Made by a program: the position numbers and the translations under genes. This document shows positions 1-63,055 of a stretch of 64,000 nucleotides of DNA, piece after piece. Position 1 is the first letter of the stretch. The number at the start of each line of letters is the position of its first letter. The stretch spans positions 104,089,635 to 104,153,634 of the forward strand of contig JARFYF010000063.1 of assembly GCA_030265395.1 (NCBI GenBank), read 5' to 3'. The stretch comes from Rhina ancylostomus. Its lineage: Eukaryota. A model generated the notes under the pieces. It had not been told where the DNA came from, searched no databases, and saw nothing but the letters and a program-made list of their open reading frames with translations.

Positions 1-265
1 GTTGAGAGGAAATGGTTTTAAAAGGGATTTGAGGGAAAAGTTTTTTAAACAGTGAGAGGCTGATATCAGGAAATTGCTGCCAGGGGAGGTGGTGGAATCA
101 GATATGTTTAAGAAACATTTAGACAGGCACTTAAATAGGCAAGGCATAGTGGGATACGGACCTAATGTGGCCAACTAGTGTAGAAGGGCAAAAAGGTTGG
201 CATGGACATGGTGGGCCAAAAGGCCTGTTTCTGTGCTGTATAACTCCATGACCCTATGACTCCAA
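1..265 (+). mobile_element. CR1 LINE 3' end
   Basis: ggacatggtgggccaaaaggcctgtttctgtgctgtataactccatgaccctatgactc tail. Confidence 0.75.
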
Positions 266-1744
266 TATATTGGATATACTCAACAGGTCAGGTAGCAACC
301 ATGGAGCGAGAAAAACTGAATTAATGTTAAACCACAAGATGGACAGAAAGGATTACAGTTTTGATGCACACATGGGCAAAATGTCTTACTGCTGGGATGC
401 AACCAGGGTTTTACAGGAGAGATTGTGATGCAGCCAAAAATCAGAAATATACTTGCCAACTTGAAAGGAAAAGAAAGTTGGGGGTGGAGTTCAAGTTTCA
501 TGGGAGGCTGGATTGAGGATGATGGGTAGTGAGTGGCACTGAGTGAAGAAAATAATAAAACCAGAGAAAAGAGAACTATAGACAATGTTTAGAAGCTAGC
601 CTAGAGCGAATTGGTCAAAGGAGCAGAAGTAGGTTCTGTGGAAGAGATCTATTTAGAAAGGTTGATGGGGGAGCAATTGCAAAGTGAGAGTTGAATTTAT
701 AGCAAGGGGAAGAGAAAGGGAGAACAAATGGGGCAGATAGTTTGCCCTTGGATGGATATCCATGAGCTTCTCACTTAGAATTGGGGGGGAGGGGGGGTTT
801 GCAGGTGTTTGGAAGTCAAAGGAAATTTAGATTAGAGGAGATGCTTCTTCAAATGAGGACTTTAAGGTTGTTTTGCAATCCAATCTGATTCTAATATATG
901 TGATTTTTGGCTGTAAAGTACATACATATTTAGCTTTATATGATAAAGATGCAAAAGACAATTGTGCTTCAAGTACACTGTAGTTTTCACTCTTCTTGCT
1001 TGAAAGTACAAAGTTGGAGACTGTATCAGGAGAGGTGGGCTGGTGGGAACCAATGTTAGTTTTTTTAAGCTAAAAGTAGAAATTAGAGAACAAATTAAAA
1101 CAACATCAGCAAAAAAATCATTTTTTTTAAATTAATAAATGGTAACAACATAGAATTGTATACAACATAAAGCAAAGAAGCATTCATGCCACCCTATCCA
1201 TGACAATGTTTATGGTCCACTTGTATTGGATGAAGATTGGGCAGAACTGCATGGGTAATGATGCCATCCACTTTTGGGTACAGTGCTCAAGTTTCTTTCT
1301 GTCACTAACAAATGCTGATGCCCCAAAAACTGGAGCCTTTTTAATATTGATTCATAATTTTAGTAATTTTTCAAGTTCACTTGCTTGATTATCATTAATC
1401 AAAAGATTACTACGCTCGAGGTTCTGCTTTTTAATTTAGGCCTTGCCCACTAGCAGATCCTCCTCTGTTCTCTGAAGTGGATCACATCAAATTTGTACTC
1501 TTACATTTGCAGCTGCTCTTCTTGTTGACACACCCCACAGGACTCCAATGATGACTAGAGAGTATTCCCTTTTTTTAAATTAAATCCAAAATAACTAGAA
1601 GCTTTCTATTTTGTTCCACCCCACCCTCCAACCCACTGTGGACTATCTGGACTACTCAATGATGCCTTGGTTAGAAATCTAAAATCCCATTCTAAAGCCT
1701 ATTCACTTCTCTTCACAAACTAAGCTACTTCATAATATGAAAAT

Positions 1745-1920
1745 CAAAAATCTGCAGATGCTGGAAATCTGAAATAAACCCAGATGCTGGAAACACCCTG
1801 CAGATCAGGCAACATCTATGGAAAGGGAAACACAGTTTAATGTTTCAAGTCAAAGACCTTACAAAAAGTAAGAGAAGAAAAGTTTGTTTTAAGTCACAGA
1901 GAGGGTGGGAGAGAATTTCT
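1745..1920. mobile_element. Penelope-derived element arm
   Basis: ctgcagatgctggaaatctgaaataaa...gatcaggcaacatctatggaaagggaaacacagtttaatgtttcaagtc. Confidence 0.6.
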
Positions 1921-3189
1921 TAATGATTGGATAGGACCATCTTTTGCAATTTTCCCTCCATTCCTTCTCTCGTTTTCTCTTTTCCTCCTGTCAATCATAC
2001 ACTGAATATGGTCTAATTGTTCTGTTGTAAATAATCCTGCTGTTTCTAACCCTCCCTGTGTGATGAAGCTCCTTTAACTCTCATTCCAATTCATTACCTC
2101 TGAACGAATGTGATTCATAACAGAGGCATTTCTCACGTTAATCCAGAATTGCCTCACTTCCATGTATTCCTACATTTTGTAGTCCAAGCATTCTGTCTGT
2201 CCTATTGTTATCTATGACATTCTAATTCACTAATATATTGTTCTTTAGAACAAACTTATCAGCTTCTCTATGAGCAACTGGCAGCAACTTGACAGGGTGC
2301 TACATTTTGTACAAAGTGGGATTCCCACAGGTACTTTCATGGTGTACATGCAGCCTCATTCAAAGGGATTCTGCTCTAATGTAGGGCAATGTCATGGTTT
2401 GCAGCACAATGTTATATGATTGGATTGTTCCTTCTGTAGCAATCACTTTCAAGTCTTCATTTCTAAGCCCTATACTGTGCCAGCACTGTCTGGAAAATAA
2501 GATTCTGGGTGGCTTCTGGCTATCCTCCAAATGTTTTCTCAGGCTTTGAGCTGAACAATAAAGTATAAGTAGGCATGTTAATCTGCCAAGGTAATAAATG
2601 AGAACTCATGTCAGGTTGAAGATATACTTTGATGCCTCAGACATGTTTCACACATCTTGCAACATGCTTCAATTGAGATTTCAAGGATTGTGGTTGCATT
2701 TTTTTTGTGAAAAGCTTTGTCATGGAAACCTCAAAGGAGGAAGATCTCCACAAGGAGAAACAAATTTATCAAATGTAACAACCGCTGGCTGAAAAAGACA
2801 CAAGTATATCAAAGAGCTAAAATAGACATTTGTGCCATCCTCAGGCAGATTTTCTCATGAGTACTGGCCAAAATGCTTCAATAGTACTCTGCATTTCCTC
2901 CATATAAAGGTGCCATCAAGCACAGACATGATGTGCGATAGCAAAAAGCTCTTTCATACAAGGAAAATGATAGGAACTTCCATATCTTTCCAATTAACGC
3001 CATCAGCATGCACAGATATTAGAGTAAGCAAACTGTCAGTTTGAAAGTATAGCTGTGTACATAATAAGTCTACCAAATAAAAAGTAAATATCAGACATGT
3101 CATAGCAGTTTCTGTTTCTGTTTCAGATTTACAGCATCTGCAGTCTTTTGATTTTCTCTTTATGCCCAGTTTATCAAACACTTTGTTGT

Positions 3190-11749: not shown

Positions 11750-12006
11750 CACTGTAGTGTAGCAGTTAGCGTAACGCTAAAACAGCGCCAGCGACCCAGG
11801 TTCAATTCTGCCGCTGTCTGTAAGGGGTTTGTACATTCTCCTCGTGACTATGTGAATTTCCTCCGGGTATACCAGTTTCCTTCCATGTTCCAAAGACTAC
11901 AGGTTAGGAAGCTTGTGAGCATGCTATGTTGGCGCCGGAAGAGTGGCGACACTTGTGGGCTGCCCCCAGAACACACTATGCAAAAAAATGCATTTCACTG
12001 CGTGTT
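11750..12006 (+). mobile_element. tRNA-derived V-domain SINE
   Basis: gtagtgtagcagttagcgtaacgct...ggttcaattc (B box)...tttgtacattctcctcgtg...gtttccttccatgttccaaagac; truncated by a gap. Confidence 0.85.
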
Positions 12007-13650: not shown

Positions 13651-13844
13651 AATAGTAGGAAGTCTTTGAGGTCATTCATTGTTACTTTACAAATAATTGG
13701 AATAAATTAATCTTTTTTTGTCCACCTCCTCATACAGCTAATGTGAAAAATTCTTAGTATACATTTCTCTAGCATAATATCATTTGCAATCTTCCCATAT
13801 AATCATCTGAATCTTCTACTGTATTTACATTTCCCTCACATGTA

Positions 13845-14020
13845 ACAGAAACAGAGAAAGCTGGAAACATCCAGAAGGTCAAACAGCATCCACTGGGAAA
13901 TAAATAGAGTTGACATTTCAGGTCAAGGACCATTCAATTCTGATGCTGCTTGATCCGTTGAGTGCTTTGAGTAGTTTCTATTTTTGTTTCAGATTTCCAG
14001 GATTTGTAGTTTTTTTGCTT
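13845..14020. mobile_element. Internally deleted Penelope-derived palindromic element
   Basis: agaaagctggaaac...ggtcaaacagcatc...gttgacatttcaggtc joined to gatgctgcttgatccgttgagtgc...tttcagatttccagga. Confidence 0.6.
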
Positions 14021-15314: not shown

Positions 15315-15545
15315 CACACGAGACTGCAGATGCTGGAATCTGGAGCAATAGATAAACTACTAGCGATCTGAGTAAGAACATGGAGAACAGTTGAAACCAC
15401 TGAGGGGGAGCAGTAAGAGAGGGAATGCTATCTCCTCTCTATACTCTCAGTCCTAAAGAAGGGTCTTGACCTGAAATGTTGACTATCCCTTTGCCTCTAC
15501 AGATGCTGCTTGACCCACTGAGTTCCTCCAGTAGTTCTTTTTATT
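15315..15545. mobile_element. Copy of the Penelope-derived palindromic element with a decayed hammerhead at 15448-15485 (+)
   Basis: ctgcagatgctggaatctgga ... cagtcctaaagaagggtcttgacctgaaatgttgacta ... cagatgctgcttgacccactgagttcctccag. Confidence 0.7.
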
Positions 15546-17240: not shown

Positions 17241-18523
17241 CAAAGTGAGATCTGGAAGTGGCAATTAACCTATGTTCCTGTTTGCATAGTATGGACATGA
17301 TAGGCTCAATGGCCTCCTTTCAATGTTATAAATTTTGAGTATTCCTCTCCTTCTTGAGATGGCAGATGTTGACATCCAATGACCGTGCAATTGTATTGAA
17401 ATCCGGTAGGTCCCTTGGCCTATGACTTCAGCTATTGGCAATGGAGAAAGTCATCATTTCAGTTATCATAGCAGATTTGTTCATGTTGAGCTTATTGTGA
17501 ATGCCTGTCTGTGCATTAGTTTGCCTCTTGTCAAAGAAAATTTTTCTTTATTGGCCTCCAAAATATGGCAACCGAGTAGAGTTTACAGAGGATTCATCAC
17601 CTCCTCTTACTTACTTTTGTAGTATGAGTCACTTTATTGGCCCAACCAGTGTCTGAGTGTCCGTGCAGATTCACGGTCTGTGTAAATCAGGTGATGGGGC
17701 ACTGACAGAAAGATTCAGCTCCACGGAAAGATTCCTCACCCTCTACATCAACCAACTCCTGCTGCATTCTTGAAGGCCTTGTGGATGATAAAAGGCAAGA
17801 ATTATGTCCATCAGTATAAGAGTATTGCAAGTTGGCACAATGAAAATGATCATATCTCCACTGCTGATATCAAGTCAGCATTGCTACCATATGACATGTG
17901 GGTGGATTTTATTTAACAATGTAACCAGCCAGGCAAATGGGAGCTCCCTGTCTTCTATCTCCTCCACTTGGGTCCACCTTAACTTCACTGATCCCCATTG
18001 ACTCCTCCTCTTTAGTTGTTAGCTTGAATGATCTAAGGAGGAACCCTCCAGTTGTATCCCGGGTGTTTGGTCCCCTCTTCTGTAAGGAGGAAAAGCAGAG
18101 ATCGAGGAGTTAGGGTAAAGGCATGATGCAACAACAAAGGATGACAACAAGTGGGAGGTATAATATTGTATAAGGATGAAAATGAGTGGGGAAGGTGCTG
18201 GTTCAGTGGAGTATGAGAAAGTGAAAACCAAAAGAGTGGGGGTGTTGACTGATGAGATGGAATAGGATTGAGAAGTGAGAATATGTGGTGATACACATAT
18301 CAGGGTGTAAGGGAACATGGAACCGTGCTCATTTTTACCTGCCCTACTTCCTACATCAAATCCAGGTCCAGAGAGCTCCTGATGATAACCTCCAACCTCT
18401 CCTCATCAGATGGCCTCCTCCATTGGCTGGGAAGCACATTCTCCTCTGGCCCTTCACAGCACCCTGCAGTACAACCAGATATAGGCATCCTTGAAACAGG
18501 AAGCACCCTTTGTCTGAGTCATG

Positions 18524-18734
18524 AGAGATTCTGCAGATGCTGGAATCTGGAGTAACACACAAAATTGCTGAAGGTCAGGCAGCATCTATGGAGGGAAATG
18601 AACAGTCAACGTTTCGGGTCGAGACCCTTCATCAGGACTGCATGAAGGGTCTTGATCTGAAACATCAACTGTTTATTTCCCTCCATAGATGTTAACTGAC
18701 CTGCTGATTTCCTCCAGCATTTTGTGTGTGTAGC
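18524..18734. mobile_element. Palindromic non-autonomous element derived from Penelope-like pseudo-LTRs
   Basis: Arms at ~18555-18632 and ~18642-18731 are reverse complements (ggtcaggcagcatctatggagggaaat...gacccttcat / atgaagggtc...atttccctccatagatg...ctgacc). The same arms flank GIY-YIG remnants at 38440-39490 and 49920-50900. Confidence 0.75.
18603..18640 (-). ncRNA. Minimal type I hammerhead ribozyme motif (Penelope-like element type)
   Basis: Minus strand reads CAGUC-CUGAUGA-A-GGGU-CUCG-ACCC-GAAA-C-GU-U-GACUG: 5-bp stem I, full CUGANGA/GAAA core, 4-bp stem II, palindromic ACGU stem III, GUU cleavage triplet. Confidence 0.75.
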
Positions 18735-18969
18735 ACCTTTTGTCTGTTTTGACCACATTGCAACATTTCAGGTTTGCTGTCAGCCAATTTATTTGCTCCA
18801 TCTCGCATGTTTGGAAAGTCCCTGAATAAACTAGAGTTGAGTTCATGCCTTGTGGGTCCACACCACATCCACGAGAGGAATATGAAATCTGGATCGAGAA
18901 TGATTGTATGATACCTGGATAACAAACCAATGCCAGTCATGCTTCCCACATTTATTGTTGTCCCTTAGA

Positions 18970-23128: not shown

Positions 23129-23421
23129 GGTAGTGTAGCGGTTAGTGTAACTCTTTACAGCGCCAGTGACTCAGGTTCAATTCTGGCCACTGTCTGCAAG
23201 GAGTTTGTACGTTCTCCCAGTGTCTGCATGAGTTTCCTCTGGGTGCTCCGATTTTCTCCCACTTTTCAAAGACGAACAGTTTAGGAAGTTGTGGGCATGT
23301 TATGTTGGCACCGGAAACGTGGCGACACTTGCGGGCTACCCCAGAACACTCTACTCAAAAGATGCATCTCACTGTGTGTTTCAATGTACATGTGACTAAT
23401 AAAGATATCTCAATTTATCTC
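23129..23421 (+). mobile_element. tRNA-derived V-domain SINE
   Basis: Same family as 39715-40019; ends tgtacatgtgactaataaagatatct. Confidence 0.85.
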
Positions 23422-23486
23422 ATTGGAGCATCTTGCCTGGGCGCTGGGTTCTGAGGCCAAGGATGAGATGGAGACTGATGTGAAGC

Positions 23487-25401
23487 AGAATCAGATTTAT
23501 TACCACTGACATATAATATGAAATTTGTTGTTTTTCAGCAGTACAATGCAAAGACATAAAAATCTATCGGTTACAAAACTAAATATATAGTGCAAGAAAA
23601 AAAAGGAAATAATGAGATAGTGTTCATGGGTTCATTGATCATTCAGAAATCTGATGGCAGAGGGGAAGAAGCTGTTCCTGAATCAATTCATATGGGACTT
23701 CATATGACTCCTGTACCTCCTCCCTGATGGTAGTAATGAGAAAAGAGCATGTCCTGGATAGTGAGGGTCCTTAATAATGGATACCACCTTCTTGAGGCAC
23801 CACCTCTTGAAGATGTCCTCAATGGTGGGGAAGGTTGTGCCCCTGACGGAGCTGGCTGAATCTATAATCCTCCGCAGCCTCTTGCGATCCTGTGCATTGG
23901 AGCCTCCGTACCAGGCTGTGATGCAACCAGTCAGGATGCTTTTCGTTGGACATCTATAGAAATTTGGAAGAGTCTTCAGTCACATACCAAATCTCCTCAA
24001 ACTCCTAATAAAGTAGTCGCAGGTATGCCTTCCTCGTGATTGCATCAATGTGTTGGGCCCTGAATAGATAATCTGAGGTGTTGACACCCAGGAACTTGAA
24101 GCTGCTCACCCTTTCTTCTGCTAACCCCTCAATGAGGACTGGTGTGTCCTCTCACGACTTCCCCTTCCTGTAGTCCTCAATCAATTCCTTGGTCTTGCTG
24201 ACGTTGAGTGCGAAGTTGTTGTTGCAACACCACTCAACCAACCTGATCTATCTCATTCCTGTACGCCTCTTCTTTGCCATCTGAGATCCTCTCAACAACA
24301 GTAGTGAATTGATAGATGGTGTTTGAGCTGTGCTTAATGTAGAGAGAGTAGAGCAGTGGGCTAAGCATGCATCCTTGAGGTGCGCCTGTGTTGATTGTCA
24401 GTGAGGAGGAGAAGTTACTGACTGTGATCTCCCGATAAGGAAGTTGAGGATCCAGTTGCAGTGATAGGTACAGAGGCCCAGGTTTTGAAGCTTGGTCATT
24501 AGTACTGAGGGAATGATGGTGTTGAACACTGAGCTGTAATTGATAAACTGCAACCCAACATATGTTTTGCTGTTGCCTAGTTGCTCCAAAGCAGAGTGGA
24601 GATCCAGGGAGATTGCATCCACTGTAGACCTCTTGTAGCAGTAGGCAAATTGCAGCAGGTCCAGGTCCTTGCATAGGCAGGAGTTAATTCTTGACATGAC
24701 CAACCTCTCAAAGCACTTCATCACAGAAGATGTGAGTGCTACTGGGCAATAGTGATTGAGGCAGCTCATTCTGCTCTTCATGGGCACTGGTATGATTGTT
24801 GCCCTTTTGAAGCAGGTGGGAACCTCAGACCATGATAGTGAGAGGTTGAAGATATCCTTCAACACTCCTTGCACACCACTGGGGCCTGATGCCTTGTGAG
24901 GGTTCACCCTCTTCAAGGATGTTCTGACGTCAGCCTCTGAGACAGAGATCACAGGGTCACCAGATGCTGTGGGGATTTGCACAGGTATAGAGTTATTCTC
25001 CCTTTTAAAGCATGCATAAAAGTTGTTGAGCTCATCGGGGAGTGAAGCATCACTGCCATTTATGCTGTTATATTTCGCCTTATAGGAAGTAATGGCACGC
25101 AAGCCCTNNNNNNNNNNNNNNNNNNNNNNNNNNNNNNNNNNNNNNNNNNNNNNNNNNNNNNNNNNNNNNNNNNNNNNNNNNNNNNNNNNNNNNNNNNNNN
25201 NNNNNNNNNNNNNNNNNNNNNNNNNNNNNNNNNNNNNNNNNNNNNNNNNNNNNNNNNNNNNNNNNNNNNNNNNNNNNNNNNNNNNNNNNNNNNNNNNNNN
25301 NNNNNNNCTGTCTCGAAGGCACACACTCATCCATGCAGGTCTTGAAGTCAGTGAAGACTGTGGCATATTCATTCAGATCCGCAGATGAATCCCTGAATAT
25401 T
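23487..25401 (-). mobile_element. Rex1/Babar-clade LINE, 5'-truncated and decayed
   Basis: ORF 24398-25372: DASLPDELNNFY...KRVNPHKASGP...DIFNLSL...PTCFKRATIIPVP...PVALTSSVMKCFERLV...LQFAY...FNTIIP; TGAPQGCMLSPLLYSLY; (TCTGAT) tail at 23487. Confidence 0.85.
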
Positions 25402-26506
25402 GGGAGACCACAGTCAGTGCGGATAGGTAACTACACCTCCTTTCTGACAATCAACACGGGGCACCTCAAGGATGTGTGCTTAGCCCACTGCTCTACTGTC
25501 TCTACACTCATGACTGCATGGCTAAACACAGCTCAAGTGCCATCTATAAATTTGCTGATGTTGGTAGAATTTCAGATGGTGACAAGGAGACATACAAGAG
25601 TGAGATAGATCGGCTGGTTAAGTGGTGTCGCAACAACCTCACGCTCAATGTCAGCAAGACCACGGAATTGATTGTGGACTTCAGGAAGGGGAAGCTGGGA
25701 GAACACACACCAGTCCTCATTGAGGGGTCAGCAGTGGAAAGAGTGAGCAGCTTCAAGTTCCTGAGCATCAACATCAGAGGATCTATCCTGGGCCCAACAC
25801 ATTGATACAATCACAAAGAAGTCAGTGATAATAATTCTGATTCTACCTTCCTTTTTTGAAGAGTGGAATTGTACATGTGACTAATAAAGAAATCATATCT
25901 TATCTTAAATTTGCTACCTTCTAATCTGTAAAGTCTGCTCCACAGTTTAAAGAATTTTGGAAGATGAGCTTCAATGGATCCAAAGCCAGCAGTTTTGATT
26001 TGTTAGGAGTTTGAGGAGATTTGGTATGTCACCAAAGACTCTTGCAAATTTCTACAGATGTTTGGTGTAGAGCATTCTGATTGGTTGCATCACAGCCTGG
26101 TATGGAGACTCCAATGCACAGGACTGCAAGAGGCTGCAGAGGGTTGTAGACTCAGCCAGCTCCCTCCCCTCCAATGAGGACATGTTCAAGAGGCGGTGCC
26201 TCAAGGTGGCAGCATCTATCACTAAGGATTGTCACCATCCAGGACATGTCCTTTTCTCATTCCTACCATTGGGGAGGAGGTGCAGGAGCCTGAAGACCTA
26301 CACACTATGATTTAGGAACAGTTTCTTCCCTCCACCATCAGATTTCTGAACAGTTCATGAACACGACCATATTCATCCTTTTTTACCCCCCACATTATTT
26401 GTTTATTTATTTTGTGATATGTAGTGATTTCATCTATTTACACTGTACCGCTGCTGCAAAACAATAAAGTTCACAACGTACAAGTCAGTGACAATAATTC
26501 TGATTC
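25399..26506 (+). mobile_element. Rex1/Babar-clade LINE 3' part, same family and opposite orientation
   Basis: IGRPQSVRIGN...LSPLLYCLYTHDC...KFAD...NNLTLNVSKTTELIVDFRK...VERVSSFKFL; ends in attctgattc. Confidence 0.85.
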
Positions 26507-26633
26507 CACCTTCCTTTTTTGAAGAGTGGAATTGTACATGTGACCAATAAAGAAATCATATCTTAAATTTGCTACCTTCTAATCTGTAAAGTCTGCTCCA
26601 CAGTTTAAAGAATTTTGGAAGATGAGCTTCAAT
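25819..26633 (+). repeat. ~155-bp duplication (25819-25975 and 26482-26633)
   Basis: aagtcagtga...attctgatt...gaagagtggaattgtacatgtgac...gaagatgagcttcaat present twice. Confidence 0.9.
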
Positions 26634-27026
26634 ACATCCATTATTTCCAGGGCTACTTCCTTTAGTACCTTGGGATGTACTAAAGCCCTGGGAATTCATC
26701 ATCCTTAAGGCCTATTAATTTCCCAAGCACTATTTCTTTTCTAATAATACTGATTTCCTTCAGTTCCTCCCTCTCTCTGGACTCTTATTCCCAAACATAT
26801 CTGGCAGGTTACTTATCTGTGTTCTTCTTTATGAATACAGAATCAAAGTACGTTTTGATGGTTCTGCCATATCTTTGTTCCCAATTATAATTTACCCCAT
26901 TTCTAACTGTAGGTGATCTACATTTGGCTTCATAAACTTTTTCCCTCTACATGTAAAAGTGTTTACAGTCAGGTTTTATGTTCTCTGCAAACTTACTCTC
27001 AGACTCCACCTTCTCCCTCTTGATCA
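26507..27026 (-). mobile_element. Old CR1 LINE internal fragment
   Basis: tttgctaccttctaatc...gctacttcctttagtaccttgggatg...ccctgggaattcatc...aatacagaatcaaagtac. Confidence 0.6.
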
Positions 27027-29211: not shown

Positions 29212-29730
29212 CTTGGGCATGCCAGTGGCTCTACTTCATTAGGATTTTGAGGAGATTTGGTATGTCACCAAAGACTCTTGCGAATTTCTATGGATGTACA
29301 GTGGAGAGCATTCTGACTGGTTGCATCACAGCCTGGTATGGAGGCTCCAATGCACAGGATTGCAAGAGGTTGCCGTGGGTTGTAGACTCAGCCAGTTCCA
29401 TCACAGGCACATCCCTCCCCACCATTCAAGGATACCTTCAATAGGCAGTGCCTCAGGAAGGTGGCATCCATCACTAAGGACCCTCATCATCTGGAACATC
29501 CCTTCTTCTCATTACTACCATTGGGGAGGTGGTACAGGAGCCTGAAGACCCACACTGTTCCCCACCATTATCAGATTTCTGAACAGTCCATGAACAAATA
29601 TCTCATTGCTTCTTTTATTTTGCATTATTTATTTATGTTGTAATTATATAGTTTATGTCTTTGTATCGTACTGCTGCTGCTAAACAACCTTATCATATAA
29701 GACAGTGATAGTAAACCTGATTCTGATTCA
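29212..29730 (+). mobile_element. Rex1/Babar LINE 3' fragment inserted in a CR1
   Basis: WLYFIRILRRFGMSPKTLANFYGCTVESILTGCITAWYGGSNAQD...; tail aaacctgattctgattc. Confidence 0.8.
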
Positions 29731-29828
29731 TGACTTATCTACTCCAAACCTCAGCTCTTGCTCTGTGCTAGTTTCCTATGGCCCTCAATCCCCCAATCAT
29801 TCAAACATTAATCTATCATAACTTTAAT

Positions 29829-30112
29829 TAAGACAAGATTTCTTTATTAGTCACATGTACATCGGAACACACTATGAAGTGCATATTTGCATAGAATGTT
29901 CTGGGGGCAGCCCGCAAGTGTCACCATGTTTCTGGTGCCAACATAGCATGCCCACAACTTCCTAACCTGTATGTCTTTTGGAATGTGGGAGGAAACTGGA
30001 GCACCCAGAGGAAACCCACGCAGTCATGGGGAGAACATACAAACTCCTTACAGACAGTGGCCGGAATTGAACCCAGTCGCTGGCATTGTAATAGCATTAC
30101 ACTAACTACTAC
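29829..30112 (-). mobile_element. tRNA-derived V-domain SINE
   Basis: Reverse complement of the same family (tctttattagtcacatgtacatc...ccggaattgaacccagtcgctggc). Confidence 0.85.
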
Positions 30113-32199
30113 ATGACTTAGCCTCCACATACCTCTGGGGTAGAGAATTTCAGAGATTCACTACCCTCTGCGAGAAGAAATTTCCATACACCTTGGTTTT
30201 AAATGACTGTTTCCTTGTTCATGACTTTTCCAGTAGTGAAAACATCTAAACATCAACCCTGCATTTTCCCTTAGGATCTTGCATGTTTCAATAAGATCAC
30301 CTCTCATTCTTCTAAATTCCAAAAAATACAGACCCAACCTGTTCAGCCTCCCTTGGTAGGACCCACCTCTCGTTCCAGGGATTAGCCTGCTGAATCTCTT
30401 TTGGGCTGCTCCAATACAAATATATCCCTTCTTAGTACTTCACAGTACTTCAGGTGTGGCCTCACCAACACGTTGAACAATTGTAACAAAACTTCCCTAT
30501 TTCTAAACTCCAACCTCTTTGCATGTGCCATGTGCCCTATTAAGTACTTGCTGTACCTGCCTATTGACCTTTTGTGATTCAAAAACATAATTCTGTAAGC
30601 AATCATAAAACATTTACTTTTGGCCAAAATACAAAAACTGTTTGAATTCCCCTATCAGTTTTGATTCCATTATTCAGTTTGTGAACTCATAATTAAGGCA
30701 ACTGATTCTTTGATAGTAATTTGATAAATTGTATAATCTCTCATGTAGCTGTAGTCACTGGAAGCTAAACTCTTTATCACTTAGTCTCTGACCTACTTTA
30801 AGCCGATAAAAACACTGTAATTGTTGAAATGTTATCACTGCGTTTCGTGTCCTTCTAATTTCTAGACTTAATGATTCGGCAAACTTTTGAATGCAAGGTG
30901 AAAACTAACCAATTCTGACCATCTGCAATTGCGCAGAGATTATGTTAGAGTGGATATGTGCTAATATTAGGCTTTAAACTGTGTTGCAAGTTAGCAAGTG
31001 AAAAAAATCTGGAAGGAAGTGAAAAGCAAATGCAAATCAAAGGAATAAACTAAATTAAATTGAGGAAAAAAACACAGACAAAAAAAAGCTGATGCAAAAG
31101 AGAAATATGTAAAGTATGTGAAAACTAGATAAAATTGAAATAAATGTTACTGGCCAGCCAGTAACTGAGAGAAAGTAATTTGCAGTATTTTCCAATAATA
31201 ATTCCAGACAGTAATATAACAAAGCATACAATCACATAGTAAACTGAAACAATCAATGATCCATTGGATATGGCACAGGCAGCTTACTCAGGACCAGAAA
31301 AAAATGATATACATTTTCTGAATTATATTTTTCAATTTTTGTCAGATAACTTTTACATGGGGCTCAGAGAAAAATGATTCTCTTTTGGAGTCAGAGGATG
31401 TGGCAGACATACTAAATGAATATTTTGCATATGCTCTCACTGGGACTGGTTCAGGCTGGTCACATTTAACTATTGTAAAGCCAAGACCCTGTATTCATTT
31501 GGGAAAGCATCCTTCTTCATGAGAGGCATGCTTTCACGAACCCTGTAGGCATAATTAAATAACCTAGAAGAGGTGTTTAAATGTGCTGCGGTCAGCACAG
31601 ATGCTACTGTACCTCTGTGCACTTGCATGGAAGACTGAAAGCAATTATGAAAGCTTTTGTGCACAACTCAGTGCATGCTGATTTCCATTAAAATCGTATC
31701 AGTTACTGAACATTATTGAGAACCACTTGGTAGAATTTCTGGGATGATAAAAGGTTGTCAGCAGTTGATATCCAAAAGTTACCTGGACTTGGTGGAATAC
31801 ACTCTAGGTTGCTGAGGGAAGCAAGGGTATATAGATAGTGGAGTCTCTGATCTCACTCTTTCAATCTTCCTTAAATATGGCACTTGTAGGATTTCAAACA
31901 TTGCACTCCTGTTCAATAAACATGAGGGGGAAAACCTAGCAGTTACAGTCTAGCCAGCCAAAATCTGTGGTGATGAAATTTTGAAAACAATAATCATTGA
32001 CAATTAGTTTGCCATTAATAAATATAATGAAAGTGCATGTGAGTTTATTAGAAGCAAATCATGTTTGACCAACTAGTTTGAATTCTTTGATTAGGTAATG
32101 GTGAGAGTCAAGAACACATGAACAACCCAACTAAATGAATTCAATTTAAGGTCATTAGCAAAAGAGAAAAGGTAATGTTAAAAAAAATGCACAAAGAAT

Positions 32200-34639: not shown

Positions 34640-34800
34640 TTAAAACGCAGATGTTATGAATCTGAAATAAAAATATAAAAGGCTGGAAATACTCATCAGG
34701 TTGGTCAGCTTCTGTGGAAGGAACAAACAGGAAGAACATTTCAGGTCAGACATGAAGGTTTTGATCAAGGTCTTTGGTCTGAAACTTTAACTGTCTACAA
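34640..34800. mobile_element. Penelope-derived palindromic element (decayed)
   Basis: gcagatgttatgaatctgaaataaaa...gctggaaatactcatcagg...catttcaggtc...tgatcaaggtctttggtctgaaac. Confidence 0.55.
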
Positions 34801-37620: not shown

Positions 37621-37923
37621 GTGGTGGCACAGTAGTGTAGCGGTTACCGTAACACTATTACGGTGCCAACAACCCGGGTTCAATTCCAGTGCTGTCTGTA
37701 AGGAGTTTGTACGTTCTCCCTGTGTCTGCGTGGGTTTCCTCTGGGTGCTCTGGTTTCCTCCCACGTACGGGTTAGGAGCTGTGGGCATGCTATCTTGGTA
37801 CTGAAAGAGTGGTGACACTTGCGGGCTGCCCCCCAGCACACTCTCAGTAATGCAAAAAGGCGCATTTCACTGTGTGTTTTGATGTACATGTGACTAATAA
37901 GTAAGTATTTTATCTTATCTTAT
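37621..37923 (+). mobile_element. tRNA-derived V-domain SINE
   Basis: gtggcacagtagtgtagcggtt (A box), gggttcaattcc (B box), V-domain, (tctta) tail. Confidence 0.9.
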
Positions 37924-38439
37924 CAAAGCAACTGTATTTGGCATGTGAATGGAAAAGCCATTGGAAATGGAATTGCTTTATTATTGTCATTTGTACTGAG
38001 GTACAATGAAAAATTTGTTTTGCATACTGTTCATATAGATTGAATACACAGTGCATTGAGGTAGTACAGATTAAAGCAATAGAGAATGTAGAATAATATG
38101 CAACAGTTACAGAGAAAGTGCAATGCAGGTAGAATAAAGGGAAAATGAAGGGAATATCTTTGATAGGGTGAGGTCTGGGTTGTTTTGGGGATAAGCAGTT
38201 GATAAATTTATCTGGATGATGGGTTAATGAAGGCATTTTGTGAGTAATAATACAAACAAAGAAATGTAAAAGCTATTAGATAGACAGTTGGAGATCCATC
38301 TTTAATGCATATTCTTCCATTTAATGTATTTTTTTTCTCATGTAGCATCAACAACAGTCGTGGACACTTCAGGGTTTTCAACTTCTCTATGGTTATCAAA
38401 GGAATGTGACAATTTGAAACATGAGCTGTAGTGAATGCT

Positions 38440-39492
38440 GTGCAGGTCAGACCATCAGACCATGCTAATGGAGAGAGAAAAACTGAGTCAATATTACAGT
38501 GCCATTTTAATTCCCTATCCCACTCAAACTCTGGCCTGTCTGTCTGTGGCCTCCTGCACTGACATAACAAGGCCAATATAAGCTTGAGGAACAGCATCCT
38601 TCTTCTCTTTGGGCATGTTTCAGCCTTTCTGACTCAATTTTGAAGTCAACAGTTTCAAGTAACACTCTCTTTCTCTTTGTATCAGAACTGTCAGTTTGCT
38701 GATGGTCATCCATCTGTATTTGTGGCTCAGTTTTTCTCCTATGTTAGCATGCTCTGGTCTACTTAGCACTCCCTACAGCCCTGTATTTTGCAGATTTTAC
38801 TTTCCTCAGTTTGTGTTCTCTCTCTAAATACCTTCACCTCACAACTTTTAAGTTTCTTCATGTTATTTCTCTCTAAATGCTCTTGTTACCCACTAAGCAG
38901 ATGACTTCATCAACAGCTGATTCCCCATTGCAACCTAGACGTCCTATCAGAGAAATTCCTTTTATCCTGTTTATCCTCCCCCATCATCTCTGCAACTTAG
39001 AACAAATATATAATACTAATATTAATATTAAATACTATTAAGTAGGACAGGCACAGTAGTGTAGGGCAGGCACAGTAGTGTAGCAGTTAGTGTAATGCTA
39101 TTACAGTGCCAGCAACCCAGGTTCAATTCTGGCCGCAGTCTGTAAGGAGGTTGTACATTCTCCCGGTATCTGTGTGGGTTTCCTCCGGGTGCTCCAGTTT
39201 CTTCCCTCATTCTAAGGACATACAGGTTAGGAAGTTGTGGCATGCTATGTTGGCACCAGAAGCGTGGTGACACTTGCGGGCTGCCCCCAGAACACTCTAC
39301 GCAAATAGATGCATTTCACTGTGTGTTTCAATGTACATGTGATGAATAAAGATATCATATCTAATCTTACCTTATCTTAATATTTTCACTCTTTGACAAA
39401 GGGTCTTTGACCTGGAATGTTAACTGTGCCTCTCCACAGATGCTGTGTGAACTGCTTAGTGTTTCCAGCATCTTCTGTTTTTATTTCTGTCC
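38440..39492 (+). mobile_element. Decayed Penelope-like 3' region, interrupted by a SINE at 39048-39379
   Basis: gccattttaattccctatcccactc...ggcctcctgcactg...aagcttgaggaacagcatc is homologous to 50390-50530; terminal arm ccacagatgctgtgtgaactgcttagtgtttccagcatc. Confidence 0.55.
39048..39379 (+). mobile_element. tRNA-derived V-domain SINE with a duplicated 5' end
   Basis: caggcacagtagtgtag occurs twice (39048, 39067); full body; atcttaccttatctta tail. Confidence 0.9.
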
Positions 39493-39714: not shown

Positions 39715-40019
39715 CTGGTGCCACGGTAGTGTAGCGGTTACCGTAACGCTATTACAGCACCAGCAACTCGGGTTAAGTTCCGGCCGCTGTCTGTAAGGAG
39801 TTTGTATGTTCTCCCCATGTATCTGCGTGGGTTTCCTCCGGGCGCTCTGGTTTCCTCCCACATTCCAAAAGATGTACAGGTTAGAAGTTGTGGGCATGCT
39901 ATGTTGGCACCGGAAGAGTGGCGACATTTGCGGGCTGCCCCCAGCACATTCTCAGGAACGCAAAAAGATGCATTTCACTGTGTGTTTCGATATGACAAAT
40001 AAATAAATAATTTATCTTA
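39715..40019 (+). mobile_element. tRNA-derived V-domain SINE (CpG-rich, relatively young)
   Basis: gccacggtagtgtagcggttaccgtaacgctattacagc...tgcgtgggtttcctccgggcgctctggtttcctcccacattccaaaag. Confidence 0.9.
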
Positions 40020-43000
40020 CCAATGTTGTTGAGGAGAGTGTACTTTCTTTTTTGGTAAGGGGTTTTGATAAATGTTACTGACAACCAAGTGTGGAAAAGG
40101 CAAAATTATAGCTACTTTCCTAAGCACTTCTGATGCATCTGGATTTTGTGCCTTGCTGCAAGTTTGCTCGGCTCTATTGTCTTTGGCTCTAATGTCTTAT
40201 TGCTATCAGAGATAGCCATATAAGGCAGATGAGCCATATGTTGTTTTACAGAGTATAGCCTGCCAACGCAGGCCCAATAATTTGTTGAATGTGGAGCACA
40301 GTGACATAGCATGTTAATTGCTAGCCAACTTCTTTATCACAACAAACTGTTTATGTTTTACCCAACCGTTGGCCATGAATGACTTTCTTCTGATAATAAG
40401 GAAGGTCAACAGGCAGAATAATTTTATTGGAACTGCATGTTCTGATTTATGTCTGCAATAATCCAAGTCAAAATAAAAATTTCAAATGATAATTGGAAGT
40501 AGTTGCATAAGATAAGTGGGACAGAAATCAAATACAGTATCTTGTAAATTGCAGTATCTTTGGCTATTAACCAGCTCTGTGCCTCAAATCCAGTTACCAC
40601 CTTTGCTCCAAATCTCAGTTGCCTAAACTTACAGAACTTCCTTTTCAGTTTTGATATTTTATGATGATTTAAGCTACAGAATTTTAGGGGAGTAATTCCA
40701 GATTTCCACAGTCCTTTTCTGTGAAGAAACCCTTTTTGATTTTGGCCCTGACTGGCCAGTCTCTAATTTGATGGCTGTGGCCTGTTGTTCTGGAATCTTT
40801 TACCAGAAGTATTCATTTCTCTCCATTTAGTCTACTAATTTCTTTAATTATCTTGATTTGGTTATCAAATGGGTTTATCTTTTATGGACTCTGCTATTGC
40901 TTTTGGGGGACCAAAATGATACTTGATCATTCAAATGTCGATGAAGGAATTAGTGTGCATGAAATTCTGTGGAAGCATGCAGCTTAGGTAGATCAGATGT
41001 CAATCAGGGTACCTTTCCAATTTGATGCCATTGGCATTATCGAATTCAAAGTTCAAGCTTATCATCTCTCTTAATCTCATAGAACTCTTTACATGTTAAG
41101 CAAGAGCAAGAACCAAACCCCATCCTATCTCTAATCCCAACCTCCAGGAACTATTCCATTTAGAGGGATCATCAATTGCTTAGATGCTACTTGCTGGATG
41201 ATTTCTTCAGATTGTTAATATGATCCTATAAGTGTTTGATGTTTTCCACAATGTTTTGCCTACAGGGGATTGAATAGCAGGTGCTAAGGATTTTTGATGA
41301 CTTCAAGGCATCTGCTGAAACCATTTCCTCCCAGGTATTACTGGGCATTCCCCTCAGAATATAACATGAACAGCAGAATGAGCAAACAATACCCAAAACA
41401 AGACACAATGTTCGAAGAGGGAAAGAGGGCAAGGGTTCTAGCTGGAGTCATATCTGCCCCCGGCATTCAGAGAGCAATTTTCCTATTTGAATGCGATCAA
41501 GGAACATTGTGTGAGATATCTGTGTTGGAGTAGGAGATATTTGCAACATCTCACAAAATGTACTCCGCAGTTATGTGATGTTTCAGGGCTGAAATCAAAA
41601 AGATTCCTACATAAAAACTGATAGTGGAAATTTGGAACAAACACAAAAACTGGTAAGACTTGGACATTTAAAAGCTGAAATCGGATTTACGTAGAGTGTG
41701 GCATCTAAGCTATAGAATAAAGCTCGTTTGAGGTACAGGCCAACTATCACCTGACTGACTGGAGAAACAGGGTCAAGGAGCTGAATAGTCAATTCAAAAA
41801 TAATTAACAAAATTTTATTTGCTTGCACCAGAGCCTAATGGATGGAGAATGCACAACATTGGACTGCAGACATCCCCTCATGAGATGGTGTGATTAATTG
41901 CACTGTAGCATGTCAAACCGTCTGTGTACCAGAAGTGAAGAGGATTTTATTCCAACTTGTATGCAACCAAATACAGAGAATCTTGCTGATCATGAATCGT
42001 GCTGGTGCTATGCCAGCAGTTATGATGCCATCATTTTGCTGCAGGGTTATTTGCAATTTAAGCCAAAATAGAGTGGCTACAACATAATGTGCAAATGTGC
42101 CTGACATACATGCAATGCTGCCATGTGAAATCTTGACACAGTGGATATCAAGATGGTCTGCTGTGTGATCTGGCCATCATGGACAGTCCAATTCAAAGTA
42201 TGCCAGCATCCTTTATCATTAGCTGTGTTATTACTTGGCTGTTTATTAGTTTTTTTTAGCAATTTCTGCACATGTATTCCCAAATCTCTGCTCCTTGCAG
42301 CTTCCTGCTTCTCATCTATTAAATATAGCTTTCTTCAGTCCAAAGTAGATGATCCTGCCTTCCCTCAACACTAAATTACAGCTACCACACATGTTCACTA
42401 CCTAATCTAGATATATTCCTTTGCAACTATTCCTTTTATCTACAGTAAATGTGACAATTAATAATGTCATGAGCACACGTTGAAAAATGACATATTGTAG
42501 ACTTGTTAGTGCATTTTTGTAATGAGGTGTGCTGTTGATTTGGTTTGGGGTAGGAACATTTTTAAAAAATGAGATTAATGAACTGAGAATGGCTGATTCA
42601 TCCAAGAAACAAAAACCTCGCATTTGCAGAGATGGCAAAAAATGTGATTATTCCACAGCATCATTTTCAATTCCATGGTTTTAATTATTTGAATTGCACA
42701 GAGTTCTGCAGCAAAAATGTGAGTCAGGTTTTTTTAATAATTTGCTCTTTATGTTTGATTGCCAACAAAAATCCATTGTATTATGCATTTTTAAAAAATC
42801 GTAAATATTAGTTGTTTTGCCATTTTGGGTCACGGGATACAATCGTATTGGATGGGCACATGATCGTAACAACCATTTTAAAAAATTAAGTCGAAAGTGG
42901 ATGATCTCGCACAGGCTTTATGTCGTGTATTCTACAAGACAATATTTTTGAAAGCAACTGGAAAAGCTAAACATAATTCAAAACAAGATTGCAAGGTTTA

Positions 43001-43755: not shown

Positions 43756-44391
43756 ATGAAACAAAAGGTGACAATGGTGGACGTCGAAGGAACAGGATGT
43801 CCTGCCACAAAGACGGCATCCACCGTTTGCAGCAAAAATGTGATCATCAATGGTCATGTGGAAGTGGCGGAGCGCGAAGGTACGGCCGTGAAAGGTGCGC
43901 GGTCTCCGGAAGAGAGGGAGGCCATGCTGACTGGCGATGTGAAGCCGATCGAGTGCCGGGTTTACTGGACCAGGTTCGTGATCCTGATCGTGTTCAGCCT
44001 CTACTCGATGGTGAACGCCTTCCAGTGGATCCAGTACAGCATCATCTCCAACATCTTCAGCACTTTCTACCAAGTCTCCTACGAGCAGATCGACTGGCTG
44101 TCGGTGGTCTACATGCTGGTCTACGTCCCCCTCATCTTCCCCGCCGCCTGGCTGCTCGACAAGAAGGGCTTGAGGATCGTGGCGTTGCTGGGTTCCGGCC
44201 TCAACTGCATCGGAGCGTGGATTAAAATCGCAAGCGTAAGGCGAGACCTGTTTGGGGTGACCATGTTCGCCCAAACGGTCTGTTCCATCGCTCAGATTTT
44301 TATCCTCGGTCTGCCCTCTCGAGTGGCCTCCGTATGGTTCGGGCCTCGAGAGGTATCTACGGCGTGCGCCGCCGCCGTCCTGGGCAATCAG
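43756..44391 (+). CDS. FLVCR1: FLVCR1 coding exon 1 (MFS choline/ethanolamine transporter, formerly described as a heme exporter; N-terminus and first TM helices). Alternative in-frame start ATG at 43774 in stronger Kozak context (acaATGG)
   Basis: Translates to ...[29 protein letters not shown]...[29 protein letters not shown]...[37 protein letters not shown], ending CAG|gtaagg in phase 0 (636 nt). [14 protein letters not shown] is FLVCR1-type, not FLVCR2-type (CNSFQWIQYGSINN). Confidence 0.95.
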
Positions 44392-49489: not shown

Positions 49490-50900
49490 TTGATGCAAAA
49501 AAAAAGTTGACTTCACCTTTTTCTTGAGGACGGCATAATACCACATCTATATCTTATCCCTAGTGGAGCAGGTTTTGGCAGTGGGAGCAGTCCCAATGGA
49601 CCATAGTCCCATGAATATGGAAGTTGATAGGTGGGGGGTTGGCTGGGCATGTGGAGGTGAGGATAATGGAAGCTCAGAAATGGTCCTTAAGGAAAGGGCA
49701 ATGAGCAGAAGTGTGAGAAGTGGAACAAATGTGGCTGAAGGCCCTGTCAATCACATCAGAGGAAAATGCTTGAAAGGGGCATAGAAGGGAGCATCATCAG
49801 AACATCTGAAATGGAAACGCTTAGAATGAAGTCATTTCTGGAAGAATGATGGAAAAAAGTATACTTGAGATGATGATGTGGTTATGGTGGATGAAAATCT
49901 AAAGCACTGTGGATGGTGAAAATATGAAATAAAAGCAAAATGCCAGAAGCACTCAGCAGGTCAGGCAGCGTCAGTGTGAAGAGAAGCAGAGTTAACATTT
50001 TGAGTCATTGACCTTTCTTTGGAACCAGAGAAATGAGAAAGCAAACGTGTTTTGCCTTGTAGAGAGGGGCTGATTTTGCCATTGAACCCATCTTTCCTCT
50101 CATCTTTCAGCATTTTGATGGGACTGTTCCCTTCATATCTCATTGGTTTGCTCTTCCATCTCTGCAAACCACTCTCCTTGCAGCACATTCCCTTGCAACT
50201 TAGGAGGTGCAATATGTGTCCTCTTACCTCGTCCCTTCACATAATTTAGGGACCAAAATATTTTAAGTTAACTTGCACTTCTTGTAATGATCAAGTCTAC
50301 ATTGGAGAAACCAAATAGAGATTGGATGAATGCTTTGCACGATACTTCAGTTCAGTCTGCAAGGATGACCCTGAGCTTCCAGGTGCCTGTCACCAGTTTT
50401 CTATTTCGCTCTGAGCTCTGTCTTTGGCCTCCTACACTGCTCCAAAGATGGCTAGCAAGAGCTTGAGGAACAGCAACTTCAATCAAGGCATGTTGCAGTC
50501 CTCTGAAATCGATCTTGAATTCAACAGTTTTGGATAATCAACCTTTTTGTGTTTAAGTCAAGGATGACTTGTTCGTATGCAAGAGTGTCCAGCTTCACTC
50601 CATTTTTCTCCCTCCACAGATGCCACTGGGTGTTTCCAGTATTCTCTTTTTGCTTCACATTTCCACAACTACCTCTTGACAGTTCCAGCGTGTTGTTTTA
50701 CTTTTTTAAATTCTTTCTTGAATTGTCTTCATTTATCTATTATATAGATGGCTGTAAAAGCATTGCACCACCTGGACTATCACGGAATTTCCTTTGTTCT
50801 TTTACCCGTCCCCTTCTCTGTCGTTTAAAATGCACTTTTCTCATTTCTCTATTTCTGGTGAAGGGTTACTGATCTGAATCATTAATTGTTTCTGTATTTT
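49490..50900. mobile_element. Decayed Penelope-like retroelement with an inverted arrangement: minus-strand RT remnant, pLTR arm, plus-strand GIY-YIG remnant, pLTR arm
   Basis: Plus strand 50188-50222 FPCN.RRCNMCP (Cys linker) and from 50298 YIGETK*RLDECFA...DPELPGACH (GIY-YIG). Minus strand ~49780-49850 CSDDA-like RT C-terminal remnant. pLTR arms at 49920-50030 and 50560-50670. Confidence 0.65.
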
Positions 50901-62859: not shown

Positions 62860-63055
62860 ATCAAGAAAACTGCAGATGTTGGAATTCTAAAATAAAAAAG
62901 AAAATGTTGGGAATACTCAGAAGGTCAAGGCACATCTTTGGGAAGGAAAACAGATAATGTTTAAGGTTCTTTGATGTGAAACTATATCTCTATTTCTCTT
63001 CCCACAAATGCTGCCTGACCTTGAGTTTTTCCAATATTTTCTGTTTTTATATTGG
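62860..63055. mobile_element. Penelope-derived palindromic element in FLVCR1 intron 6
   Basis: ctgcagatgttggaattctaaaataaaaagaaaatgttggg...ggtcaaggcacatc / cccacaaatgctgcctgaccttgagtttttccaatattttctg. Confidence 0.6.

Follow-up and report, generated by a model that had tools for sequence, protein, structure and literature searches.

Minimal hammerheads and Penelope-like elements

Minimal hammerhead ribozymes of Penelope-like elements (PLEs) were described by Cervera and de la Pena (PMC4209133) as motifs in which A9 is followed by an extra base, 10.1-11.1 is G-C (G10.1-C11.1), and 15.2-16.2 is palindromic. In the same source, they are mostly single motifs belonging to truncated PLEs, and thousands of them per genome are reported in frog and coelacanth. 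No cleavage of the monomer and weak cleavage of the dimer were reported for these minimal forms (PMC4209133; review PMC6765202).

The typical PLE insertion has an inverted 5'-truncated copy beside the pLTR, and a tail of 30-40 bp that is often found at one end only (PMC8557442). Head-to-head arms, small palindromes at the junction, and target duplications were reported by Arkhipova 2013 (PMC3846280), where fold-back or second priming was proposed. The tail is explained by Frangieh 2024 (PMC11167929) as the stretch between two reverse transcriptase (RT) start sites. In that study of an Anolis PLE, cleavage needed protein, and the ribozyme was dispensable for insertion in vitro. The endonucleases of PLEs carry two cysteines between GIY and YIG, and the Neptune/Nematis type has a CX2-5CxxC linker (Craig 2021, PMC8557442). 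In animal retrozymes, the units are repeated in tandem, and each of them carries a hammerhead on the same strand (PMC7229834; bioRxiv 10.64898/2026.07.22.740005), and one of nine retrozyme dimers tested was found to cleave (bioRxiv 10.64898/2026.07.22.740005).

The window, i.e., the whole 64-kb stretch of DNA that was analysed, contains a 215-bp fold-back unit with a hammerhead in its left arm. This unit is likely a 5'-truncated insertion of an endonuclease-bearing PLE, with the ribozyme as its predicted silent passenger. A hammerhead-bearing fold-back insertion is an ordinary, already described kind of structure. The literature search turned up no publication that describes units of this kind from sharks or rays; Repbase, Dfam, or the bioRxiv supplements may list the family.

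Hammerhead motif

The motif was recognized on the minus strand by descriptor scan, folding, and comparison of the arms. Its parts were assigned as follows, in minus-strand reading.

18603-18640, minus strand: minimal type I hammerhead, core 11/11
18640-18636 with 18607-18603, minus strand: stem I, 5/5 pairs
18635-18629, minus strand: C3-A9 box
18628, minus strand: extra A
18627-18616, minus strand: stem II, 4/4 pairs, loop of 4 nt
18615-18613, minus strand: G12-A14
18612-18609, minus strand: palindromic ACGU without a loop
18608, minus strand: U17
between 18608 and 18607: predicted scissile bond

The motif that the preliminary description had read on the minus strand from 18640 to 18603 was matched base for base, with stems I and II pairing and the core complete. 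The hammerhead descriptor was searched on both strands of the 64-kb window, and this was the single match. On Markov shuffles, any match was obtained in 2/100, and a match as strict as the real motif in 0/100. In the isolated 38-mer, stems I and II formed in the MFE structure, and the stability was ordinary (z -1.46; 20/200 shuffles folded equally well). The Rfam scan of the whole 64-kb window gave no match at E<=1. Pattern scans of viral contigs and of metagenomes gave 0 matches in each.

Four loci from a looser pattern were rejected as chance matches, since they had otherwise no similarity to the window. A second ribozyme in the right arm was considered on the opposite strand and was rejected too, its core being cut and having 8/11 bases.

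The features of the minimal PLE-type hammerhead were found in the motif, i.e., the core C3-A9, G12-A14, A15.1-U16.1, and H17, together with the extra base after A9, G10.1-C11.1, and the palindromic 15.2-16.2. Like the minimal hammerheads of PMC4209133, it has no helix III loop, a stem I of 5 bp, the extra base between 9 and 10.1, the same G10.1-C11.1 and palindrome, and a dispersal mostly as single motifs. However, stem II is 4 bp here, whereas it is 6-8 bp in the Schistosoma and Drosophila examples of that source. U17 of the focal copy also differs from the minimal hammerheads described there, in passages which do not name cartilaginous fishes. The arrangement resembles PAc, a Poseidon element of Anolis, in which the hammerhead lies upstream of two RT starts that bound the tail (PMC11167929). 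In PAc, the ORF starts inside the ribozyme, whereas the ATG of the present core meets a stop within a few codons, as judged by eye.

Focal fold-back insertion

The unit around the hammerhead was resolved into two arms, a tail, and a target-site duplication.

18502-18516, plus strand: left copy of the target-site duplication, 15 bp, 14/15 match to 18732-18746
18517-18555, minus strand: tail of approximately 39 nt, on the left arm only, inner edge approximate (arm alignment; contigs)
18556-18640, minus strand: left arm, pLTR-like end with the hammerhead, with a deletion of approximately 10 nt relative to the right arm (arm alignment)
18641-18731, plus strand: right arm, the same end on the other strand, without the tail, cut inside the core box (arm alignment)
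18732-18746, plus strand: right copy of the target-site duplication, with a contig variant at 18738 (repeat comparison)

Because the 15-bp duplication flanks the unit, the focal insertion was delimited to 18517-18731, i.e., 215 bp. In pairs of random places, a repeat of at least 13 nt was found in 1/937. At 18738, a C is present in two contigs each of the sequencing runs X4 and X7, which are contigs of two relatives, and with this base the duplication copies are identical.

The arms stand head-to-head, pointing apart, with the junction at approximately 18640. The 141 nt across both arms were folded on the minus strand at -76.2 kcal/mol (z -12.6). Contigs of other copies run on into the same tail behind 18729. 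Flank contigs from three other organisms, 2-5% diverged, reach 22-28 nt into the unit (the bridge threshold was 31). Since these diverged contigs enter the unit, the focal insertion is likely shared with relatives and not recent.

The structure agrees with insertions of endonuclease-bearing (EN+) PLEs, i.e., a pLTR with an adjacent inverted 5'-truncated copy, a tail at one end, and a target duplication (PMC3846280, PMC8557442). Unlike canonical EN+ PLE units, the focal unit consists of pLTR ends alone (215 bp), and no full ORF or RT was recovered.

At 18531-18555 on the minus strand, the tail ends in several copies in a pyrimidine-rich run and CAG, which is splice-acceptor-like. PLE pLTRs can contain an intron (PMC6765202).

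Family members in the window

The family was searched by single-arm queries, which gave 9 loci, and by a profile, which gave 19 arm matches at 11 loci. Five of the 19 matches were weak (E 0.015-0.39), and the reversed window gave 0. The profile was trained on 10 window arms, so that the E-values of the training arms are circular. The earlier estimate of approximately 8-10 copies in 64 kb was thus about right. Besides the focal unit and the two ORF-bearing units listed in the next section, the following members were found.

15325-15543, no single strand: two-armed unit, left arm of tail only, 91-nt spacer, right arm with core 10/11 (G5 lost) (queries, profile)
13842-14003, no single strand: decayed two-armed unit, tail on the right arm only (profile search)
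34646-34796, no single strand: decayed two-armed unit, short right arm (profile search)
62871-63050, no single strand: decayed two-armed unit, tail on the left arm only (queries, profile)
1753-1871, minus strand: single arm with the tail (queries, profile)
263-328, minus strand: single arm remnant (profile)
3104-3142, plus strand: single arm remnant (profile)
41618-41660, minus strand: weak single arm remnant (profile)

Seven of the 11 loci are two-armed units, and in all seven the arms are head-to-head. Their centres are all different (7/7), the extremes being an overlap of 5 nt and a spacer of 899 nt. Four of the seven have a one-sided tail; one unit was uninformative, one had no tail, and one had part of the tail on both arms. 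A clear target duplication was found at one, possibly two, of the seven two-armed units. At the six units other than the focal one, there was one possible duplication (13 nt, at 34.7 kb), and the rest were at chance level or absent.

The full 11-base core is present in 1/14 arm heads, and the next best has 10 bases; approximately 6 of the 14 arm heads examined are either cut short or not in register. In the 64-kb window, the family forms no tandem array, and a second ribozyme on the same strand was not found.

Four arms, i.e., 1834-1871 (minus), 34756-34793 (plus), 39389-39426 (plus), and 49989-50026 (minus), belong to an older subfamily with a different stem II register and no extra base. Its stem II pairs at 5/5 in three arms and at 4/5 in one, although the window arms are much decayed. 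Three of the older arms have U-A instead of C-G at the first stem I pair, plus U17. The differences in the stems between subfamilies may possibly reflect covariation.

Putative Penelope-like ORF ends between arms

In two of the seven two-armed units, the 3' end of an ORF is enclosed between the arms.

49908-50026, minus strand: inverted arm with the tail, older subfamily, first ORF-bearing unit (queries, profile)
50130-50537, plus strand: decayed ORF 3' end with Penelope-type endonuclease motifs, stops, and frameshifts (motif scan)
50602-50666, plus strand: direct arm remnant downstream of the ORF end (profile E 4.5e-7)
50850-50894, plus strand: second, weak direct arm remnant (profile E 0.16)
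38415-38498, minus strand: weak inverted arm, second ORF-bearing unit (profile E 0.034)
38497-38662, plus strand: second decayed ORF 3' end, homologous to 50.3-50.5 kb (nhmmer E 1.6e-12; 73% over 119 nt)
39389-39485, plus strand: direct arm of the second ORF-bearing unit (queries, profile)

In the first remnant, a C at 50194 and a CxxC at 50208 lie across a frameshift, a CxxC-x4-YIGET begins at 50274, and the stop is at 50535-50537. The later residues are presumably the C-terminus of the endonuclease. The CxxC-YIGET pattern was found in 0/200 shuffles, although the pattern was written after the match was seen. By these motifs, 50130-50537 is inferred to be a remnant of a Penelope-type endonuclease. 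The linker motif, read in two frames (C 50194, CxxC 50208), would tentatively place it with the Neptune/Nematis type. The motifs of this sister unit would correspond to those of EN+ PLEs, i.e., a C-terminal GIY-YIG, two cysteines before YIG, and a CX2-5CxxC linker (PMC8557442).

An EN+ PLE is expected to have a C-terminal GIY-YIG endonuclease with CCHH cysteines just ahead of the pLTR, and a telomerase-like RT within that ORF. Pfam search of the two ORF ends in six frames gave no GIY-YIG match and one weak unrelated match, and a protein search with the 65-residue remnant gave no candidate homologue, which counts as weak evidence. Upstream of four arms on the ribozyme strand, Pfam search in 12 frames gave 0 relevant matches and no RT.

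Between the direct arm at 39389-39485 and its ORF end lie a likely UTR and a repeat of approximately 300 bp that was inserted there. The arms of the ORF-bearing units are of the older subfamily (E approximately 1e-4 to 1e-5 against the focal arms), and therefore the tie of the focal subfamily to the ORF is indirect, by homology. With this qualification, the association with Penelope that had been proposed earlier for the family was supported by the ORF 3' ends between the arms of two window units.

A palindrome that is short, non-coding, flanked by a target duplication, built of inverted arms, and present in high copy number could also be a MITE or another DNA-transposon derivative, with an incidental match to the hammerhead. 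However, the arms are unequal and the tail is one-sided, and the centres vary, reaching 899 nt, and hold ORF ends that carry GIY-YIG-type motifs. The match is hardly incidental either, as a strict hammerhead occurred in none of the 100 shuffles and the older subfamily retains stem II with other sequence. The DNA-transposon origin is therefore scarcely credible.

Weak inverted similarity was observed between the sequence upstream of the 38.5-kb ORF end and the downstream UTR (38144-38281, 38401-38500, and 38545-38762; E 1e-5 to 0.03). The inverted part of this unit may be longer than the arm alone.

Abundance and junctions in sequencing runs

The family had been called very abundant, and the contigs of the sequencing runs confirmed this. 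In 4/4 runs, 28,937-59,821 contigs per run were placed on 18300-18950, nearly all of them on the unit, and the flank depth was 0-26. These contig counts are evidence of abundance and give no copy number; run X1 might itself be the source of the window. Over 400 types of contig junction were found, at low depth, with no dominant type among the 15 listed. The loose ends beyond the core agree poorly (0.32-0.45), which indicates that the sequence upstream of the ribozyme varies among the copies. A few gaps aside, some contigs extend over both arms. At position 17, C makes up 49-57% of the contig depth in each of the four runs, and the focal copy has U. Alterations at G12 and at C11.1 each account for 21-26% of the contig depth.

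The varied centres and the scattered low-depth junctions agree with an autonomous element that was inserted repeatedly in 5'-truncated form. A separate non-autonomous, retrozyme-like family, as the preliminary description had it, does not agree with the inverted arms, the absence of a tandem array, the seven different centres, and the scattered junctions. The unit does resemble animal non-LTR retrozymes in being non-coding, in its type I hammerhead, and in its kinship to PLE pLTRs. However, non-LTR retrozymes are described as head-to-tail units with a hammerhead each and a circular RNA (PMC7229834; bioRxiv 10.64898/2026.07.22.740005), whereas the focal unit is inverted, with one complete motif and no tandem copy. 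In the window, neither head-to-tail same-strand units nor a fixed unit length and sequence were found.

The very high abundance and the lack of an ORF in the focal unit would also suit a non-autonomous mini-Penelope, i.e., a fold-back unit that is transcribed and re-copied in trans by Penelope RT and endonuclease, with the hammerhead freeing the unit RNA. The pLTR sequences are by themselves able to guide integration in trans (PMC3846280), and retrozymes, which are proposed PLE derivatives, were found in the sole chondrichthyan sampled (bioRxiv 10.64898/2026.07.22.740005). The contigs that cover both arms with few gaps point the same way. Against this, such re-copying would have to be reconciled with centres that differ in all seven units, with the lack of a dominant joint among the 15 listed, and with the absence of a tandem array and of a second same-strand ribozyme. 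In addition, the stems are predicted to be buried, and 13/14 arm heads are without the full core. This reading is quite improbable.

At 18642, 239-347 right-arm contigs per run (4/4 runs) have a loose-end consensus ending CAGTCCAG, i.e., A at core position 4. This consensus has a low overall agreement (0.42-0.45), and the placement of contigs biases the subset. A core-variant subfamily with A at position 4 may also have been amplified. If so, this consensus would be a hint of a self-standing mini-Penelope, since a lineage with a variant core would have been amplified too. In that form, the young subfamily would be a pLTR-only RNA that was mobilised again in trans on tens of thousands of occasions and for which the ribozyme would be dispensable. 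This form is also considered rather improbable, and repeated truncated insertion of the autonomous PLE is preferred.

Predicted behaviour and decay of the focal ribozyme

In a fold model of the 261-nt read-through RNA, the pair probability of stems I and II was 0.000, and in the left arm alone it was approximately 0.005. The double-hammerhead fold was calculated at -18.7 kcal/mol, versus -31.7 kcal/mol for the best duplex. These fold models disregard co-transcriptional folding and the help of proteins. Because the arm-to-arm hairpin is predicted to bury the stems and no partner lies on the same strand, a silent ribozyme is predicted for this locus, where it is likely a passenger.

The focal arms show 6 differences in the 30-nt hammerhead stretch, and 5/6 fall on CpG sites. 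All 4 CpG sites of this stretch have decayed in the right arm, and 1/4 in the left arm. At decay rates of 0.5-0.7, an arm would keep 3/4 CpG sites with a probability of 8-31%. The asymmetry between left and right lies in the direction that selection would give, but it is within chance and not significant. From the substitutions, the decay of the hammerhead looks neutral. One intact-looking core needs no selection, because it is the best of approximately 14 arm heads. The intact look, which had been noted earlier, says little about activity, as most differences between the arms are at CpG sites and the stems are predicted to be sequestered.

U17 probably arose from C17 by CpG decay, because the left arm has TG and the right arm CA, and because of the share of C at this position in the contig depth. 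U17 was rejected as a proof of inactivity, since GUU is cleavable, being listed among the cleavable triplets (PMC3138052), and U17 is common in the older arms.

These data bear on another explanation, in which the unit is a Penelope stub, but selection has maintained its left-arm hammerhead, which cuts a minus-strand transcript of the host. The complete core (11/11), the loss of one CpG site against four in the sister arm, and an insertion that is likely common to relatives with 2-5% flank divergence would be expected in this case, and domesticated hammerheads are described in amniotes (PMC6155905). However, the CpG asymmetry does not exceed chance in a copy chosen as the best of the arm heads. 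The motif has no stem III loop and no partner and is predicted to be sequestered, and no host exon was found nearby in a short-motif look, which was not rigorous. Selection on this hammerhead is thus very unlikely, and the silent passenger of a truncated PLE is retained.

Proposed origin of the unit

The arms, the tail, the duplication, the variable centres of the sister units, and the ORF ends within two of them were read directly from the sequence, and the steps given here follow published PLE biology. The GIY-YIG endonuclease of the autonomous PLE would nick the target. RT would then start at either of two sites, approximately 90 and 125 nt downstream of the ribozyme core, and the stretch between the two sites would form the tail. 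Reverse transcription would halt just beyond stem I, and a fold-back or a second priming event would make the inverted arm. The ribozyme would be active only in the tandem transcript of the parent, as a dimer via the palindromic ACGU or aided by the protein of the element. At the focal locus, the opposite arm is predicted to pair with the core and bury it.

The way in which PLEs build the inverted arm and the tail is still called undefined (PMC8557442). An abundant family with duplications, one-sided tails, and varied centres is a natural record for testing fold-back priming and two-site initiation. Moreover, subfamilies with intact and with altered cores allow an in vivo test of the role of the ribozyme in spread, a role which the in vitro work on insertion (PMC11167929) found unnecessary.

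Other repeats and genes in the window

A second dispersed repeat of 260-300 bp was found in six copies with 75-85% identity.

11750-12006: copy of the second repeat
23130-23420: copy of the second repeat
29830-30128: copy of the second repeat
37622-37922: copy of the second repeat
39069-39369: copy of the second repeat
39716-40019: copy of the second repeat

One of these copies sits within the Penelope-like unit at 38.4-39.5 kb. Decayed pieces of a non-LTR retrotransposon were observed at 23134-26640 and 29231-30113, apparently ending in the 260-300-bp repeat. An RVT_1 domain was matched at 24401-25105 (minus strand) with E 8e-6, which is under the curated cut-off.

At 43759-44390 (plus strand), in a GC-richer stretch, the first coding exon of an FLVCR1-like transporter was observed, by which the host genome is vertebrate-like; its repeats would suggest a cartilaginous fish. 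The best match of this exon was human FLVCR1 (E 2.9e-68), and it carries an MFS_1 domain.
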